Of a stretch of 64,000 nt of DNA, positions 8,381 to 58,071 are shown piece after piece. Both the position numbers and the translations under genes were made by a program. Source of the stretch: a virus; the IMG/VR virus record IMGVR_UViG_3300043571_000443, positions 1 through 64,000 of that record; one strand, 5' to 3'. The stretch's first letter is position 1. Each line of letters begins with the position of its first letter. Below the pieces are notes generated by a model. It worked only from the letters and a program-made list of their open reading frames with translations. It ran no database searches and was not told the origin of the DNA.

Positions 8381-8490
8381 CAGTCGGTCCTCGGTGTAAG
8401 TGGTTGGTGGGTGGGAGGAGGTTGGCTTGTCCTGGCGCTCATCACACTGTCGGTTTCCCGACTCGGCTGTTATCCGCCTCCCATGTCCCT

Positions 8491-8520
8491 AATATACCCC
8501 CACTATATCGGGCTTGTCAA
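8491..8520 (-). promoter_or_regulatory. sigma70-type promoter (GGGGTATATT class)
   Basis: TTGACA-N18-TATATT on -. Confidence 0.6.
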
Positions 8521-14533: not shown

Positions 14534-15017
14534 GCGCTCCCACGGGGTGGGGTTGCTCAGGGCAAAGAATAACTCCCACGATGGTGGGGTGATCTAGCGA
14601 CCGGAGCGACTCCCACCGAAGTGGGGCTGGGCTGCTGGGTTTGGAAAAACCCCCACCGAAGTGGAGAGGCGTTTGCGAACAGGCCGGGGAGGGGCCGGGG
14701 GCCGGGGCATGGTGGGGAGAAACCCCCACCGAAGTGGGGAGGTGGTTGCGAGTTGTCAAGGCTGACTTTGAAGCTGGCGTGGCGGTCGAGAAACCCCCAC
14801 CGCAGTGGGGAGGTGCTTGCGAGTGTGCTTAGCAGAGCCCTTGATGCCAGCCTAGGCGACGAGAAACCCCCACCGAAGTGGGGTGTGCTTTGCGAGAACC
14901 CGCTGATCGAGGGCTTGACGCTTCGAGACTGGGAGAAACCCCCACCGAAGCGGGGAGGTCTTTGCGAGCAGTTAGGACAAATTGACTCGAAGACGGAAAA
15001 ACCCCCACCGGAGTGGG
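14530..15017 (-). CRISPR. Array C: same 37-nt repeat family as array B plus three distal minimal units
   Basis: Partial repeat 14995-15017; full repeats at 14932, 14860, 14787, 14716, 14643; spacers 26, 35, 36, 34, 36 nt, then 16, 13, 13 nt. Confidence 0.93.
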
Positions 15018-16403: not shown

Positions 16404-16702
16404 TAGGCGACTCCTATGGCAGTAATAGCGCCATCGGTGCGGGTAATGGTCTTGGTACGCACTACCGCAGGGCTGCGGGTGTAGTCAGTCTCGGTGATGC
16501 TGGTAATGGCGCCATTGGTGCGGGTGATGTCTTTGCGGTATAGCTCCGCCCCGCCATTGCTGACATAGATGCTAATCCGCGTAATAGCGCCATTGGTGCG
16601 AGTAATGGTCTTGTAGAACGGTTCAGGCCGCAAGGAGACCAAGGGCAGGACGCTGGTGGTTTCCAGGTTGCCCGAACCGTTTAGCTGGATTGCCTTTGCC
16701 AT
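16403..16702 (-). CDS. putative virion protein with 3x ITRT(N/D)GAIT repeats
   Basis: Internal repeats visible in DNA and protein. Confidence 0.6.
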   Translation of the reverse strand: MAKAIQLNGSGNLETTSVLPLVSLRPEPFYKTITRTNGAITRISIYVSNGGAELYRKDITRTNGAITSITETDYTRSPAVVRTKTITRTDGAITAIGVA

Positions 16703-16706
16703 GGCG

Positions 16707-17228
16707 CTACACCACTGTCAAGGTGATAGGTGGGTCATTTTCAAACACAATTGACGTGGCTGAAATCGCATTGCCAAGTCGTTGTAGGATGACGTTCGCG
16801 CCAGGGGTGGCAGGGGCGGTAGACGAGAAGGCCCCTGCCGCTGTGGCGCTCAAGAATACCGTGCCCACTGTGGCACCGGTGACGGCGGTATTGCGCCCAG
16901 ATAGGTACACCGTGGCATTAGCGGGAGAGGTCACCCCCGTCAGCACATAGCCAAAAGCTTGTCGTCCGTTACTTGCATCTGCTTTCCTGGCGGTTGGAGT
17001 GCCGGAGTTGTCAAAGATATTCACAAAGTCGCCAGCCGTCAGGTTTTCACTGGTGGGCAAGAGTACCGTCTGAAGCTCAACCCCAGGGGGCAAGAAGGTG
17101 GTATCCAGCAGACCCGAGCTATTGGTAGCGATCAGCTTGTTGGCGTCGCCTGCCCCAGCACTGCTGCTAGGCGCTTCGGTTAGGGTAGTGGTGCCGCTTA
17201 CAACGGTCAAAAACTTTTTCGTAGTCAT
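16707..17228 (-). CDS. putative virion fibre or decoration protein
   Basis: SAGAGDANKL..TNSSGLLD, ENLTAGDFVNI..ARKADAS, VFLSAT pattern of phage fibre-type proteins. Confidence 0.6.
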   Translation of the reverse strand: MTTKKFLTVVSGTTTLTEAPSSSAGAGDANKLIATNSSGLLDTTFLPPGVELQTVLLPTSENLTAGDFVNIFDNSGTPTARKADASNGRQAFGYVLTGVTSPANATVYLSGRNTAVTGATVGTVFLSATAAGAFSSTAPATPGANVILQRLGNAISATSIVFENDPPITLTVV

Positions 17229-52282: not shown

Positions 52283-52314
52283 AACTCAATCCTCGTAAGT
52301 GGTTCGATACCTTC

Positions 52315-52343
52315 ACTATACCCCCCCTGTATCGAACCGTCAA
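52315..52343 (-). promoter_or_regulatory. sigma70 promoter, repeated cassette
   Basis: TTGACG-N17-TATAGT; near-identical to 52941 and 54993. Confidence 0.7.
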
Positions 52344-52397
52344 CAGCCTGCAACAAAAAACCCCGGACTGGCCGGGGCAATGCAACAGCCTAGCAGA

Positions 52398-52856: not shown

Positions 52857-52940
52857 GGGTGGATCCGGTAAACGTCCCCACTAGCCTAGCAGAAACCCGA
52901 ACAAAAGCCTATGGCCGGAAGGAAAAAGCCTAAAGCGGGG

Positions 52941-52969
52941 TTGACGGTTCGATATGCAGGGGGTATATT
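52941..52969 (+). promoter_or_regulatory. sigma70 promoter, repeated cassette
   Basis: TTGACG-N17-TATATT. Confidence 0.7.
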
Positions 52970-53004
52970 GAAGGTATCGAACCACTTACACCGAGGACCG
53001 ACCC

Positions 53005-53208
53005 ATGCCCAAGTTCATTTCCATCCAAGACGGCGCTTACCTGCTCAACCTGGCCCATATCGTCAGCATCGAGGTAAATAAAGGATCCCTGGAAGTTACC
53101 TGCAATGATGGCCAAGGGGCCTACACCATAGATGACCCTGACGAGATGGGGACACTGATGGACGCGATCCAAATCGTGGATTCAAGCGAAGAAGGGATGC
53201 AAATGTAA
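53005..53208 (+). CDS. hypothetical protein
   Basis: Promoter, CCACTTACACCGAGGA leader, terminator 53236-53259. Confidence 0.65.
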   Translation: MPKFISIQDGAYLLNLAHIVSIEVNKGSLEVTCNDGQGAYTIDDPDEMGTLMDAIQIVDSSEEGMQM

Positions 53209-53244
53209 CCCACCCTCCCCACCGCTTCCCCGCAGACCCCCGGC

Positions 53245-53919
53245 CTAGCTGGGGGTTTTGCTTTGGGCCACATAGCTGAGCAGGTCCATTAACCGGCTGC
53301 CCCGCACTGGCGCGATCTGGTCCTCCAGTGGCTGATACTGGCTGATCGCCCGCATCAGCCTGTCGCTGTGGTACAAACCGCTATCGATCTCCGTCTTGCT
53401 AAACCCCAGCGCCATTAGCCCCTCATAGGCAGCTAGAAGGCCCGTGAAGCGTTCCCGGCCTATCCACAGGGTATCTAGCTCGAACTGCACCGGGAAATGG
53501 TCTCTGCTATGGCCATCCTGGGCCCAGGGCAGCACATGTTTCTGGCCAGACTCAGCAATGACAATCGTAAACGGTGGCTCCGGTGGCTCCAGTAGCCAGC
53601 CACGGATCTGAGCTCGGGTGGGCAAGTCCGAGACTACCGGAAAGATGTCTTTGCCGATGGCCTTGGCCTCACCGATCGCAGGCGACAGCAGCACATCGCC
53701 CTGGTACAACCGGCTCAGGGACCGGCCCCATAGCTTACTCCACTTGTCCTTGCCCTGATTCCAGTACCACAGCAGCTTCTCATGGCCGTCGATGGCACCA
53801 TAGCACCGCCCGCATAGCTGGTCGGAGTCTGGGCAACGGGCCATGCTGTGGCCGGTGAAAGTGTCCTTGAGCGCCAAGGGGAAGCTGGCGGGCTTGCCGC
53901 ATAGGTAGCACTCAGCCAT
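53245..53919 (-). CDS. csf1: type IV Csf1 (Cas8-like)
   Basis: CYLCG, TFT, LCGRC, LLEPPEPPF....SGQKH..W. Confidence 0.8.
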   Translation of the reverse strand: MAECYLCGKPASFPLALKDTFTGHSMARCPDSDQLCGRCYGAIDGHEKLLWYWNQGKDKWSKLWGRSLSRLYQGDVLLSPAIGEAKAIGKDIFPVVSDLPTRAQIRGWLLEPPEPPFTIVIAESGQKHVLPWAQDGHSRDHFPVQFELDTLWIGRERFTGLLAAYEGLMALGFSKTEIDSGLYHSDRLMRAISQYQPLEDQIAPVRGSRLMDLLSYVAQSKTPS

Positions 53920-54655
53920 GGTCTGCAACCTCCGGAAAGTGTTTACAAAATTCAGCCCAAAATTCTGGATGGTAGCGCCGCAGGTCACTGAGTCGCCCCC
54001 AGTTTACGCCAGTAGTCCCGATGGGTGGCCCATTGCGCACCGTCAGCCGGTCCCGGTCGTACATGGCAGGGTAGGGCAGTCGGTGGGCGTCGATATAGCA
54101 CCAAATATCCTGGGTGCTCCAAAAGCCGACCGGCGAACATACCCACAGGCCATCCTTACGCTGGTATAGCTCGCCCTTGCCCTTCAGGTACATAGCGCGG
54201 CCCCGAGACTCTTTGCGTAGCCCCCAGGCATAGCCTCGCACGCCATGGGCCTCCTGGTAGTCATCCAGCGGGCCATACATTAGCGCTGCATTAATGCGCT
54301 TGTCCAGGCCGGTCGCCATGGTGCCATCCAAGGGAATGCCATAGTCCTGGTACAGCTTCAGTAGGCTGCGGGGTGGGCATAGCTCGATGATGTTCCAGCC
54401 CTGGCCCTGCAGGTGGTGCAATAGCTCGATGCAGTCCGGCCATTCTGCCAACGGCCCTTGGTTTACCCAGGCAAAAGGGCAGTCCGGCCATACCTGGCGG
54501 ATTAAGTGAGCCATTACCAAGCTATCCTTGCCGCCACTGACTGAGCCATAGGCGTAGCGATCTGTGGCCTCCAGCCAGCGGCCAATAACAGAAAGCGCCC
54601 GGTCAACCTTGCGGGTCAACCAGGGCGCTCGTGAGCCGGTGCCGGTGTTAAGCAA
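53912..54655 (-). CDS. cysH: CysH-like (PAPS reductase family) protein of type IV-B loci
   Basis: SVSGGKDSLV PP-loop, GLRKESRGR, P..FWS..DIW.YI...LPY..YD. Confidence 0.85.
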   Translation of the reverse strand: MLNTGTGSRAPWLTRKVDRALSVIGRWLEATDRYAYGSVSGGKDSLVMAHLIRQVWPDCPFAWVNQGPLAEWPDCIELLHHLQGQGWNIIELCPPRSLLKLYQDYGIPLDGTMATGLDKRINAALMYGPLDDYQEAHGVRGYAWGLRKESRGRAMYLKGKGELYQRKDGLWVCSPVGFWSTQDIWCYIDAHRLPYPAMYDRDRLTVRNGPPIGTTGVNWGRLSDLRRYHPEFWAEFCKHFPEVADHG

Positions 54656-54956
54656 GCTGCATCCGCTCGCTCATTGCATCCGCAAACCATTCGCGGATCT
54701 TGTCTTCGGCATTGTCATAAAAGCGAGTGTTGGAGTCGTCATCCCACTCTTCGTCGTTGAGGTGGGGGACGGTAAGAATGAGTCCGGGGCTATCGTACAG
54801 GTTCCCAACAGAACCCTTGTCCAGGGATCGGTAGGTGCCATCCTCAAACAGCTCAACAACGTAAGCACCGCCGCCCCAGGATGCCTTTGTGGAAGAATCA
54901 ACGGTGGCCTCGAAGTCGATGGCCATGAAGTTATCGAAAGCCTTTTGAATAGTCAT
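54648..54956 (-). CDS. acidic hypothetical protein inside the type IV operon
   Basis: Own promoter (54993-55021) and CCACTTATGAGGA leader. Confidence 0.65.
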   Translation of the reverse strand: MTIQKAFDNFMAIDFEATVDSSTKASWGGGAYVVELFEDGTYRSLDKGSVGNLYDSPGLILTVPHLNDEEWDDDSNTRFYDNAEDKIREWFADAMSERMQLA

Positions 54957-54992
54957 CAGTCAGTCCTCATAAGTGGTTTGTTCCATGCCTTC

Positions 54993-55021
54993 AATATACC
55001 CCCTGCATATCGAACTGTCAA
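54993..55021 (-). promoter_or_regulatory. sigma70 promoter, repeated cassette
   Basis: TTGACA-N17-TATATT; the -35 overlaps the cas6 stop. Confidence 0.7.
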
Positions 55022-55626
55022 CACTTTTCGACAAAATAGCCACAGCCTAGGCGCTGTCTACCTCCTAGCCCTTGCCGCTGGAGAGTCAGCGACGCATCCG
55101 GCGATAGGTCGGCAAAGCTTACCCCGTAGCCCACCACGGCAGCATCCTTGATCCGCAGGGTTTTGCGCTCCCCCAGTACCGGCATAGACTGTACCCCCAA
55201 CCGTTCCAGCGCCTTGCCTAGGGCTATCCCGAACTCAAAAGGTGACACCTGGTCCTGGTACTGGGCTTTGATGGTCACCAGCCTTGCCTCCAGGCTAGGA
55301 CATGGCTGCAGGGATGCACCCGTGAAGGTGCCTAGCTGCACCAGCGCCTTACCCACCCGCAATACTTGCCCGTCCAGGCTACCGAATAGCTCCAGGTTGG
55401 CCAGCTCAGTCCGCACCCCTAGCCAGCTTTCGCTACCCAGTTGCACCCAGCCCTGGCGGTCCGGGATACCGTTGATCGTCTTCAGCGACCAGGCCAGCTC
55501 CTTTAGCCCCGGCAGGCGTTCCACCAGAGCGCTATAAAGCCGGTAGCCATGGTCGGCGGGTATCCTATCGCCCTGCACCGGCCAAGCTAGCTGTATCCAG
55601 GTAGGCGGTGTGGACGGGCATGGCAC
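55018..55626 (-). CDS. cas6: Cas6 (Myxan-type) crRNA endonuclease
   Basis: GDRIPADHGYRLYSAL, LEARLVTIK, VVGYGV, LQRQGLGGRQRLGCGYF; GTG start uncertain. Confidence 0.88.
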   Translation of the reverse strand: MPCPSTPPTWIQLAWPVQGDRIPADHGYRLYSALVERLPGLKELAWSLKTINGIPDRQGWVQLGSESWLGVRTELANLELFGSLDGQVLRVGKALVQLGTFTGASLQPCPSLEARLVTIKAQYQDQVSPFEFGIALGKALERLGVQSMPVLGERKTLRIKDAAVVGYGVSFADLSPDASLTLQRQGLGGRQRLGCGYFVEKC

Positions 55627-56293
55627 AGCGGGCTTTGTTGGCTGATAGCCAGGCGGGGGGTCGCCAGCCCCAGTCGCGGATGGCAATATCAATCGGTCGG
55701 TCCCGGGGCAGGTGGACGGCGGGGATGGGTCGCATAAGTTCACCGTTTGGCCCCCATAGGTGCCAGTCTTGGTCATGGTCCTCTACCTCCCAGTTGGTAA
55801 CTTGCCCGTAGCCATGGGCGCGTTTCTTGCCTAGCCCAGTACAGCCTTGCAATAATGCCGCGATGCCTTCCCGGTCGCCCTGGCAGTACCAGGTGATTGT
55901 CGGTGCCAGCCGCACAAACAAGGGCAGGTCGTAGGCTTTCTCCGCCCCCTGACTGGTATCCCACTTTGCCTTGCGCTTCCCCCAGGCCGGTGGTGGGCTA
56001 TCGATCCCAGGTGCCCAGCGCTTCCTAAATTTGCTAACCGACTCATTGCGGTAGGTGTAGCACGGACTAGAGGTTTGCCAGTACCAATCCTCGCCCAGCC
56101 AACCCTTAGCCAGTGGCATGTGTTCATCCACTACCGGGCGGCTAGCTTCTACGTCCTGGGCGCTAGGGTTGGGGGCCGCCATGCCCCGGGCATCGAGGAT
56201 CAACCACTCCAGCAGGCTAGCCAGATCAGGACTCCAGTCATCAAAGACGGCAATGCCCGACGATAGCCGGGCGGTGACTCGCAGGTTAGCCAT
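55565..56293 (-). CDS. csf3: type IV Csf3 (Cas5-like)
   Basis: LRVTARL, WYCQGDREGI..LL...LGKKRAHGYGQV..W, RPIP, RPPAW. Confidence 0.85.
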   Translation of the reverse strand: MANLRVTARLSSGIAVFDDWSPDLASLLEWLILDARGMAAPNPSAQDVEASRPVVDEHMPLAKGWLGEDWYWQTSSPCYTYRNESVSKFRKRWAPGIDSPPPAWGKRKAKWDTSQGAEKAYDLPLFVRLAPTITWYCQGDREGIAALLQGCTGLGKKRAHGYGQVTNWEVEDHDQDWHLWGPNGELMRPIPAVHLPRDRPIDIAIRDWGWRPPAWLSANKARCAMPVHTAYLDTASLAGAGR

Positions 56294-57449
56294 TGAGCAA
56301 ACCCTTCAGCTCGCTGGACTCCTGGGCCTGGGCTAGAAATTCCTGGTAGACGCTCAGGTAGTCCTGATAGGCATGGTGGGCCTCCTGAGCGGCGCTGGAT
56401 AGCGTCTGGCTGCCAGTAGCTAGCGATAGGAAATGGCCGCGCTCCTGGCCACGCTGATACCAAAATTCTAGCGACACCAACCCATTGCCGCGGTTAGCCT
56501 TGCCGCCGATATAGGGACTTTCGGCAAAGCGCAGTAGGGTATCGACTACCCAGCCAGTCTCGATGGCGGTGGTGTGCAGATCCCAGCGGCTATAGAGCCT
56601 GGAACCCGCCATGATCAGCCGGTCGCTGGCGATCATCTGGTCAGACTTTTTGGCCTTATCCTCACCCTTAGCCTTTGACTTGGCCTCACCCAATAGGCTC
56701 ATCTGGCCTTCCTCCGTACCGCCTGGGAGGAACTTTTGCAACGCTGGATCGTGGGTACTATCGCGGCGGGTGGTTTGGTCTACCGTCAGGTACTGGGTCC
56801 AGTTGCGCAGCATCTTGCGCAGGTAGGGCAGGTGGTCTGCCTTGGCCTGGCGGTAGACTTCAACCTGCTCAGCCGTAGGTGGCTCAAACGGATTAGCTGT
56901 TAGCCTGTCTTTGTACTCCAGTAGTTCCTGCAGCCTGGGCAGTACATCTGGCGGCAATAGGCCGGGAAATTCCCGGTAGATCAGCTCCGCCGACTCGTAG
57001 CACAGCAGATACGCACTACCCACCGCCAGTCGGCCATGGACCATCTGGGCATTCTTCACCCCAAATACCCCGGCAGGCTTGGCCGTACCCAGCACCGACA
57101 GCCAGGGCATCAACTGCCGGATGCGGGTGTCCAGGTCCATATCGTTGGCGGTGCTGCCATCAATGCGGCCGCCAGCAAATAGGGTGTGGTGAACATCTGG
57201 CGATACCTGCAGGGCCAGCGCATCCAGCACACTAGCCATGCCACGGCGGCGTAGGATACCATTCCGCAGCGCATTGCCAGAATAGACAAAGCAGGAGACC
57301 GGGTTCCCCTCCAGGTCCAGCAGCTTGGCCGTCTTGAGGTTACTGACATTGCCTGCTACCTCGCCAATGTGGGACAGCGGGCTTTGCAGGGTCACCTGGC
57401 AGTGCAAGGTGATCCGCTGCCGATCATGGATATCGTAAGCTTCAAACAT
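56286..57449 (-). CDS. csf2: type IV Csf2 (Cas7-like)
   Basis: LQSPLSH, SGNALRNGILRR, LFAGG, P.LSVLG, TRRD, QMI, IGGKANRGNG. Confidence 0.88.
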   Translation of the reverse strand: MFEAYDIHDRQRITLHCQVTLQSPLSHIGEVAGNVSNLKTAKLLDLEGNPVSCFVYSGNALRNGILRRRGMASVLDALALQVSPDVHHTLFAGGRIDGSTANDMDLDTRIRQLMPWLSVLGTAKPAGVFGVKNAQMVHGRLAVGSAYLLCYESAELIYREFPGLLPPDVLPRLQELLEYKDRLTANPFEPPTAEQVEVYRQAKADHLPYLRKMLRNWTQYLTVDQTTRRDSTHDPALQKFLPGGTEEGQMSLLGEAKSKAKGEDKAKKSDQMIASDRLIMAGSRLYSRWDLHTTAIETGWVVDTLLRFAESPYIGGKANRGNGLVSLEFWYQRGQERGHFLSLATGSQTLSSAAQEAHHAYQDYLSVYQEFLAQAQESSELKGLLNG

Positions 57450-57957
57450 CGGTGGTTACCTCTACGTCGATAGCATCGTCTGGCGCATCCTGGCCTAGCG
57501 CCCGGTCTTCCTCAAAGCGCAGGCGGCACAGCACCTGAATGATAGCCGCCCGGGTCCGGCATAGCTCAAGCACATCCCACTCGGTAAAGCCGTCCTTGGC
57601 GATCTGCTGCAGCAAGTCCCGCCAGCCGACAAAGACTAGCGCCTCATCCTGGGTCAGCTCCTGGATCTCGCTCAGGTCAGCGTTTACCCGTAGGATGCGC
57701 TGCTCTGGCTGCACGATGCCGGTCAGTACCGCTGGCCGTAGGTGGCTGATCAAGGCATTGACCAGGCGTTGTAGGTAGTCCTCCAGCGTGGTGGATACCT
57801 CAGCGCTATTCTGGATAGTGGACTCCAGAAAAGTCCAGGTCTTGGTGCCCATGGCTGGACTTTTGGCCCGGTCGCGGCACTTGAACACCCAATAGCTAAG
57901 GGCTGCCGCTAGCCCATAGGCGCTATCGGAGGCATTGGAAAAACCGAATTGACTCAT
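57442..57957 (-). CDS. putative Cas11-like small subunit
   Basis: Helical 171-aa protein first in the csf operon, the usual IV-B position. Confidence 0.55.
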   Translation of the reverse strand: MSQFGFSNASDSAYGLAAALSYWVFKCRDRAKSPAMGTKTWTFLESTIQNSAEVSTTLEDYLQRLVNALISHLRPAVLTGIVQPEQRILRVNADLSEIQELTQDEALVFVGWRDLLQQIAKDGFTEWDVLELCRTRAAIIQVLCRLRFEEDRALGQDAPDDAIDVEVTTDV

Positions 57958-58071
57958 AATGCTTGACAAAACTGCCATTATAGTATCACAACCCTGGCCA
58001 GCCACGACAAAGCCCGCCAGGTGGCCAGCGGGCTGGGGTGGGGGAGTGGGGTGGAGGGGGAGTGTCCTCTT

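Follow-up and report, generated by a model that had tools for sequence, protein, structure and literature searches.

A type IV-B CRISPR-Cas cassette with its own Cas6 in a variable region of a tailed phage genome

The cassette and its genes

The metagenomic virus record IMGVR_UViG_3300043571_000443 (IMG/VR) has 74,186 bp and 56.6% G+C, and we have analyzed its bases 1-64000, a stretch of 64,000 nucleotides that we call the window. Between 53245 and 57957, on the minus strand, it contains a type IV CRISPR-Cas cassette in which cas11, csf2, csf3, cas6, a small open reading frame (ORF), a cysH-like gene and csf1 follow one another. A preliminary description of this DNA had already read that gene order and had recognized in it a cysH-linked, helicase-less, Cas11-bearing module of the IV-B kind with a Cas6 of its own. 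Profile searches (PADLOC, PF09559, TIGR02807 and PF01507) bore out both the order and the type of module. The features are listed here in the direction of transcription, together with the ratio of nonsynonymous to synonymous replacements (dN/dS), computed between the window and a near-identical relative (L003).

About 58010-58033, minus strand: hairpin terminator preceding P1, read from the sequence
57977-57991, minus strand: promoter-like site P1, TTGTGATACTATAAT, with an extended -10, upstream of cas11; read from the sequence, putative function
57442-57957, minus strand: cas11, type IV small subunit, 171 aa (PADLOC typeIV_Cas11, E 1.9e-5); its correct start codon is the ATG at 57957
56286-57449, minus strand: csf2, type IV Cas7, 387 aa (PADLOC Csf2_0_IV, 4.9e-40; dN/dS 0.08)
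55565-56293, minus strand: csf3, type IV Cas5, 242 aa (PADLOC Csf3_0_IV, 2.2e-42; dN/dS 0.10)
55018-55578, minus strand: cas6, Cmx6/I-MYXAN family, about 186 aa (PF09559, 5e-47; TIGR02807 cas6_cmx6, 156.7 bits; dN/dS 0.16)
54993-55021, minus strand: internal promoter-like site P2, TTGACA, 17 nt, TATATT, near-consensus, overlapping the cas6 stop codon; putative function
54648-54956, minus strand: small ORF, 102 aa, in the slot between cas6 and cysH (dN/dS 0.43)
53912-54655, minus strand: cysH-like PP-loop gene (PAPS-reductase family), 247 aa (PF01507, 1.5e-10; dN/dS 0.11)
53245-53988, minus strand: csf1, type IV small Cas8-like large subunit, 247 aa (PADLOC Csf1_0_IV, 2.9e-27; TIGR03114, 6.6e-10; dN/dS 0.10)

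The TIGR02807 score of the Cas6 compares with a curated cut-off of 98.85, and with PF09559 the protein scored 160.8 against a cut-off of 26.7. It retains the invariant His of the family (H20) and the glycine-rich loop GLGGRxRxGCG. A longer version of the cas6 ORF, extending to 55776, overlaps csf3 and is probably unused. The CysH-like protein also retains its PP-loop, SGGKDS, which is invariant across the aligned relatives, and cas11 is located upstream of csf2 in 28 of 28 related loci. With dN/dS values between 0.08 and 0.16, csf2, csf3, cas6, cysH and csf1 are under purifying selection.

Since P1 precedes cas11 and P2 overlaps the stop codon of cas6, the cassette appears to be organized in two transcription units, cas11-csf2-csf3-cas6 and small ORF-cysH-csf1. 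A TTGACA-type site 3' of cas6 was also found in the related loci L002 and L109. The small ORF gave no family match in Pfam, NCBIfam, PADLOC or PHROGs, and the slot that it occupies is variable: L002 and L107 have two other small ORFs after cas6 and L109 has different ones again, each behind a TTGACA-type site. Because of this variability the small ORF is probably cargo and not a subunit. Sites similar to P2 (GTTCGATATGCAGGGGGTATATTGAAGG and variants) were also seen at about 52940-52975, about 52310-52345, 4876-4900 and 8484-8508, ahead of several small genes, which suggests that this promoter/operator motif is a regulatory signal shared across the phage.

Subtype and comparison with known systems

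By gene content the cassette belongs to subtype IV-B. Csf2, Csf3, Csf1, a Cas11-like protein and an adjacent cysH-like gene are all present, the large subunit is Csf1 and not the Cas10-like HD subunit of IV-C, and the helicases of IV-A, IV-D and IV-E are absent. Specifically, TIGR03117 (DinG) and PF13604 (RecD-like ATPase) gave no match across the 74-kb genome, while the control genomes were positive. Csf2 was set against the reference subtypes by profile and structure. Its profile leaned slightly towards IV-B, matching the IV-B structure 7jhy best in the PDB (4.6e-5), with the IV-A structure 8rc2 at 3.8e-4, and the best Foldseek matches of its AlphaFold model (AF2, pLDDT 75) were Csf2 chains of type IV-A (E 4e-12). 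Compared with the usual IV-B, the Cas6 within the operon and the presence of two arrays elsewhere in the genome are atypical.

The IV-B loci of Mycobacterium sp. JS623 (PDB 7JHY) and of plasmid pRHL3 of Rhodococcus jostii RHA1 have in common with the phage locus Cas11, Csf2, Csf3, Csf1 and a cysH-like gene, the lack of DinG, RecD-like protein, nuclease and adaptation genes, and the location in a mobile element. They differ in that the phage locus has cas6 in the operon, csf1 in the last position, cysH in an internal one and arrays in the genome. Besides, their carriers are actinobacterial plasmids instead of a phage, and the Csf2 proteins are about 30% identical over the N-terminal 150 residues. 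The combination of IV-B genes with a Cmx6-type Cas6 is found in plasmid pGMOR1 of Gloeobacter morelensis (NZ_CP063846.1, about 77.4-82.5 kb). There, a Cas11-sized ORF and Csf2 (55% identity, full length) are accompanied by an annotated I-MYXAN Cas6/Cmx6, a hypothetical protein, a PAPS-reductase-family protein and a second hypothetical protein. Unlike the phage, pGMOR1 has conjugation (type IV secretion) genes, being nevertheless typed as non-mobilizable; its gene order is csf2-cas6, a cupin gene is inserted, and its sole array is 60 kb away from the IV-B locus, beside a 579-aa 'transposase'.

The Fuxiviridae, viruses that infect Bathyarchaeia, have been described to encode an atypical IV-B together with a CysH-like protein and an array, and a role in counter-defence or in conflicts between mobile elements was proposed for it (PMC10541130). 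These are archaeal viruses, the array is a single-spacer mini-array at the locus, and 'cas6' is unmentioned in the text of PMC10541130. Type IV-A (Csf5/Cas6-dependent, with DinG) is similar in its dependence on an array and on a Cas6-family endoribonuclease, apart from the structural matches of Csf2 given above. However, the phage genome has no DinG, it has Cas11 and the CysH-like protein, and its Cas6 is of the Cmx6 family and not Csf5 or Cas6e-like.

A total of 12 IV-B loci with Cas6, rare exceptions, had been reported by Pinilla-Redondo et al. (PMC7038947). Considering these, the viral IV-B mini-array (PMC10541130) and the architecture of pGMOR1, the novelty attributed to the locus in the preliminary description was overstated. 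In the type IV literature that we compared, which is less than the whole, we found no description of a clade in which mobile elements linked to cyanobacteria have a Cas6 of the Cmx6 family, nor of the co-residence of a Cmx6-Cas6 IV-B with a Cas3-less I-E-like module.

Relatives of the cassette

Searches for Csf2 gave 325 homologues, nearly all of them on metagenome and IMG/VR contigs. A scan with the Csf2 profile detected 26 IMG/VR viral contigs and, among 185,579 species genomes, two matches, both on short contigs of cyanobacterial metagenome-assembled genomes (MAGs). There was no tblastn match of Csf2 among the GenBank phages, and the nearest plasmid homologues beyond pGMOR1 were RAMP genes of Rhodococcus plasmids with a PAPS-reductase neighbour (tblastn). 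The cassette belongs to a type IV-B clade whose members come mainly from phage contigs, with the Gloeobacter plasmid besides, and most of them are devoid of Cas6. The usual order in the clade, cas11-csf2-csf3-cysH-csf1, was present without Cas6 in about 20 loci (local tblastn); the identity of their Csf2 to that of the window is 47-67%. As far as tested, Csf2 does not appear to group with a described cas6-bearing subtype, its nearest relatives belonging to the Cas6-less modules and its nearest plasmid homologues beyond pGMOR1 to the Rhodococcus loci.

Within the clade, Cas6 is found in six near-identical relatives of the cassette (L001-L004, L107 and G004) and in L108 and L109, which have the gene order of the window. 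Other arrangements are csf2-cas6-cysH-csf3-csf1 (L005) and one with cas6 placed after csf1 (L110), and L027 has a Cas6-like fragment. The Cas6-bearing loci make up a single clade of the Csf2 tree, with a support of 98/99, and the Csf2 of pGMOR1 falls outside. Taken together, the several arrangements, the plasmid, the Csf2 clade and the dN/dS values show that the association of Cas6 with the IV-B module is an old one that recurs and is under selection.

An accessory hot spot and the inheritance of the arrays

The 74-kb genome is a complete tailed phage, probably temperate. The record is bounded by a direct terminal repeat of 127 bp and codes for TerL, a portal-like protein, a Mu-F-like head protein, a tape measure and an integrase; tyrosine and serine recombinases are both present. 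Far from the cassette there are two real arrays, which had also been seen in the preliminary description.

6066-6446, plus strand: array B, with a TATAGT box in its leader, then a first repeat that is truncated and five 37-nt repeats
14603-15017, minus strand: array C, with the leader type and 37-nt repeats of array B

Their 37-nt repeat, CTCGCAAACACCTCCCCACTTCGGTGGGGGTTTCTCC, is made of a 13-nt 5' extension, a perfect CCCCAC-N4-GTGGGG hairpin and an 8-nt tail, GTTTCTCC, and the spacers are 32-37 nt long. The truncated repeat that follows the leader consists of hairpin and tail only. A conserved leader, GTGCTATAGTGGT..GGCAGGACATTGA.AATTTG.GGT, was seen at 6040-6090, 15090-15000 (minus strand) and 680-600 (minus strand) of the window. 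Positions 208-4867 are occupied by an I-E-like module, a mini-Cascade with Cas6e (2210-2821, PF08798), Cas7e (PF09344) and flanking ORFs of 214 and 354 aa, and without Cas3, Cas1 and Cas2; minimal hairpin repeats with very short spacers cluster around it.

The 37-nt repeat is present on five IMG/VR contigs, and its family occurs in the phages G001, G002 and G003, which have no IV-B. Two of the five contigs, the sister phages G001 (72.8 kb) and G002 (77.5 kb), share synteny with almost all of the 74,186-bp genome. They retain the full 37-nt repeat, including the 13-nt 5' extension, and also Cas6e and Cas7e together with the neighbouring genes, but the seven cassette proteins are all missing from both. 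In place of the segment 53150-62437 of the window, G001 has about 4.3 kb of other genes and G002 about 1.9 kb. In G004, on the other hand, the IV-B cassette is present at 93.5% nucleotide identity and the upstream genes, coding for a ribbon-helix-helix (RHH) protein, a methyltransferase (MTase)-like protein, a HerA-like protein and a 368-aa protein, have been replaced. The comparison of these three genomes shows that the cassette forms, from 53245 to about 58057, an independent unit within a swappable accessory hot spot, and that arrays B and C, inherited as they are together with the Cas6e/Cas7e mini-Cascade, are probably not the cassette's own. This argues against an array-effector pairing specific to the cassette and is compatible with the use of CRISPR RNAs (crRNAs) from the arrays in trans. 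Arrays B and C are a candidate shared guide source, not a cassette-specific one.

The spacers of the sister phages differ, with one only in common, indicating that the arrays turn over and are live. The change of spacers takes place in a phage without Cas1, which was not detectable in the whole 74,186-bp genome by a search that was positive in control genomes. There was no convincing match of the spacers to GenBank phages (best E-values 0.4-0.5) and none in the phage itself, its relatives or the related loci, and an exact-match search of IMG/VR with two 23-mer spacer cores found nothing.

The hot spot (53150-62437) is located between conserved phage genes and contains, apart from the IV-B cassette, a separate one with an RHH antitoxin-like gene, a weakly MTase-like gene of 415 aa, a HerA-like ATPase and the 368-aa ORF. 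The genes found at the hot spot of G001, G002 and G004 are different and mostly without known function, with one Bro-N / PDC-S13 match. Family searches were uninformative for the 152-aa, 67-aa and 368-aa neighbours and for most of the replacement genes of these three genomes. HerA, NurA or the MTase as helicase or nuclease partners of the IV-B system were rejected, since they are absent upstream of the cassette in G004 and L001-L004. Hairpin clusters located upstream of the hot spot vary in copy number (3, 7, 9 and 9) among relatives that are 97-99% identical.

Origin of the Cas6

There are 15 close homologues of the phage Cas6 in a large protein collection, of which the closest 13 are 54-98% identical and the next two 40-41%. 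A more distant match is the I-MYXAN Cas6 of Synechococcus elongatus (40%), and homologues with 32-45% identity were found in 44 of 401 sampled cyanobacterial genomes. When metagenomes were scanned with the Cas6 alignment, the matches were mostly cellular I-MYXAN Cas6 genes, together with four close loci, three of which were too short to reveal arrays. The Cas6/Cmx6 of the cyanobacterial type I-MYXAN (a variant of I-B) has in common with that of the phage a score above the TIGR02807 equivalog cut-off, the His and the glycine-rich loop. Apart from the sequence divergence, the phage differs in having type IV neighbours and no I-MYXAN partner genes. From these sequence relationships, the Csf2 subclade appears to have captured a Cas6 of the cyanobacterial Cmx6/I-MYXAN family.

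In nine cyanobacterial loci with a Cmx6-type Cas6, the adjoining array has one conserved family of 36-nt repeats (GTGCTCAACGCCTTACGGCATC...), unrelated to the 37-nt repeat of the phage. No repeat of this I-MYXAN type was found in the window or in the whole phage genome, and the array of pGMOR1 is not of this type either. The relatives of the Cas6, the Csf2 matches in cyanobacterial MAGs and in the plasmid, and DnaN, whose nearest named cellular homologues are cyanobacterial, suggest that the host of the phage is a cyanobacterium. The phage-type repeat had seven single matches in the 401 sampled cyanobacterial genomes, not above chance when compared with the 11 control matches.

Guide source and proposed action

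Our preferred reading, to which we assign a probability of about 0.6, is that of an intact IV-B cassette, mobile as a unit within a hypervariable hot spot of the phage, that belongs to a clade with a captured Cas6 and for which arrays B and C are not its own. Cas6 would cut a repeat-bearing transcript, and Cas11, Csf2, Csf3 and Csf1 would assemble on the resulting RNA. Since nuclease and helicase are absent, the Csf complex would bind a complementary target without cutting it, with the CysH-like PP-loop enzyme as its accessory. A non-cutting, crRNA-guided complex with a CysH-like accessory is a general proposal for IV-B (PMC8175902). As to the guides themselves, the hairpin crRNAs of the phage, shared in trans with the mini-Cascade, are the most likely pool, although we put this forward tentatively. 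Host I-MYXAN crRNAs, cut by the host-family Cas6, come second and are rather doubtful, and non-CRISPR RNAs or something else are in third place, with hardly a different standing.

Several points weigh against this preferred reading. The sole IV-B complex studied biochemically, that of Mycobacterium sp. JS623, carried heterogeneous non-CRISPR RNA (PMC8175902). The assignment of Cas11 is weak in terms of E-value and leans mostly on the conserved position of the gene. By structure, the IV-A Csf2 chains outscore the IV-B 7jhy, which is a partial model, those of IV-A being more complete. The putative promoters and transcription units were called solely from consensus, and the cyanobacterial host is one that we infer from homologues. 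As this is a metagenomic phage with a putative host, it is doubtful that the system is 'tractable', as the preliminary description had it.

Among the alternatives, the one that survives best, improbable as we consider it, is the capture of host crRNAs. The phage Cas6 would cut the pre-crRNA of a host I-MYXAN system and the nuclease-less IV-B complex would load the guides, sequestering or redirecting host immunity as an anti-CRISPR acting at the RNA level. The nearest cellular relatives of the Cas6 are indeed those of cyanobacterial I-MYXAN, and the phage has no I-MYXAN-like repeat of its own. Moreover, this repeat is strongly conserved across hosts with a Cas6 38-45% identical to that of the phage, so its recognition could outlast the divergence of the Cas6. 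A crRNA-sponge role of IV-B was proposed earlier (PMC8175902, PMC7038947), but the authors of the idea judged so complex an anti-CRISPR unlikely (PMC7038947). In addition, the presence of an I-MYXAN system in the host is an assumption, the Cas6 clade of the mobile elements is distinct and old (identity of 54% or more within it and 40-41% to the next), and the CysH-like protein would be left unexplained. If true, this capture would give IV-B a defined role in counter-defence at the RNA level and would explain the recruitment of Cas6 only in a lineage of mobile elements linked to cyanobacteria.

Quite unlikely, in our opinion, is the self-contained system suggested by the preliminary description, in which arrays B and C are cognate to the locus and the Cas6 of the cassette cuts the 37-nt repeats. 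The arrays are certainly in the same genome, have promoter-bearing leaders and are live, cas6 is retained under purifying selection, and in some relatives that lack Cas6, arrays of 37-nt repeats lie 1-6 kb away from the IV-B module. However, G001 and G002 have repeats and Cas6e/Cas7e without the cassette, and the hairpin with its 8-nt tail is an I-E-type geometry, the same as that of the minimal repeats dispersed around the Cas6e/Cas7e module. The repeats adjoining Cmx6-type Cas6 genes have a different conserved sequence, and 38-47 kb separate the arrays from the cassette. It should not be taken for granted that the 37-nt arrays belong to the IV-B system.

We give an equally low standing to the possibility that Cas6 is a passenger or has a role unrelated to guides, with the IV-B complex assembling on non-CRISPR RNAs and regulating genes or modifying nucleic acid via the CysH-like protein. 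The heterogeneous RNA bound by the JS623 complex and the predominance of Cas6-less members in the phage clade are consistent with it, as is the outcome of a repeat scan of Cas6-bearing loci, which gave no arrays (L005, L027 and L108-L110, all on short contigs). Yet Cas6 persists inside the module across several rearrangements and in a plasmid, keeping the conserved His and the glycine-rich loop, with a dN/dS of 0.16.

The guide source and the function of IV-B are standing questions (PMC8175902, PMC7038947). A IV-B lineage that keeps an intact-looking Cas6 through rearrangements implies the use of processed, repeat-derived RNA, at least in that lineage. The Cas6 and the candidate repeats provide a concrete experimental handle on the guide problem, and the sister genomes with and without IV-B, having the same arrays and mini-Cascade, are a natural comparison. 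A sequenced isolate, Gloeobacter morelensis MG652769, has the same architecture on its plasmid pGMOR1.

Other observations in related loci

A Cas6-less IV-B locus (L008, on G408, a complete 95-kb phage) has seven 37-nt repeats about 1 kb downstream of csf1, at 16631-17080 of the locus (71479-71928 of the contig), and no Cas6 homologue was found within its 10-kb flanks. A second, decaying array is located about 6 kb beyond the first (77865-78338 of G408). The arrays of G408 indicate that the IV-B modules of the phage clade are often near arrays. In two other Cas6-less loci (L014:17722-21104 and L017:16339-19316) a Cas12/TnpB-like protein of 623-627 aa (PF07282 TNB domain and OrfB_IS605) is found directly upstream of an array, whose 37-nt repeat ends in ...TTGAAAC and is present in 11-17 copies, and the pair is located 3-6 kb downstream of the IV-B module. 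This is reminiscent of the published association of IV-B with an inactivated Cas12b3 (PMC12669027, Extended Data Fig. 7). The array of pGMOR1 (L197, 140572-142860) has eight copies of the 36-nt repeat GTGATCTCGGCTCTCTGGAGGCAAAGGTGGCTGCAC directly after the 579-aa annotated transposase, which is possibly another TnpB/Cas12-like effector, and the plasmid also bears a lone type I-D cas3'.

There are two types of CysH-like protein, with the PP-loop SGGKDS or SWGKDS and 25-30% identical, that are swapped among related modules (L017:11806-13207, L008:13364-14915, L005, L027, L108 and L109). After the second type, L008 and L017 have an additional conserved ORF of 230 aa that belongs to no known family. 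Two different CysH-like types are also found at L006:1387-8602, where cas11-csf2-csf3 is followed by two more sets of csf3, cysH-like and csf1 genes, which resembles a modular duplication or a reshuffling of IV-B parts.

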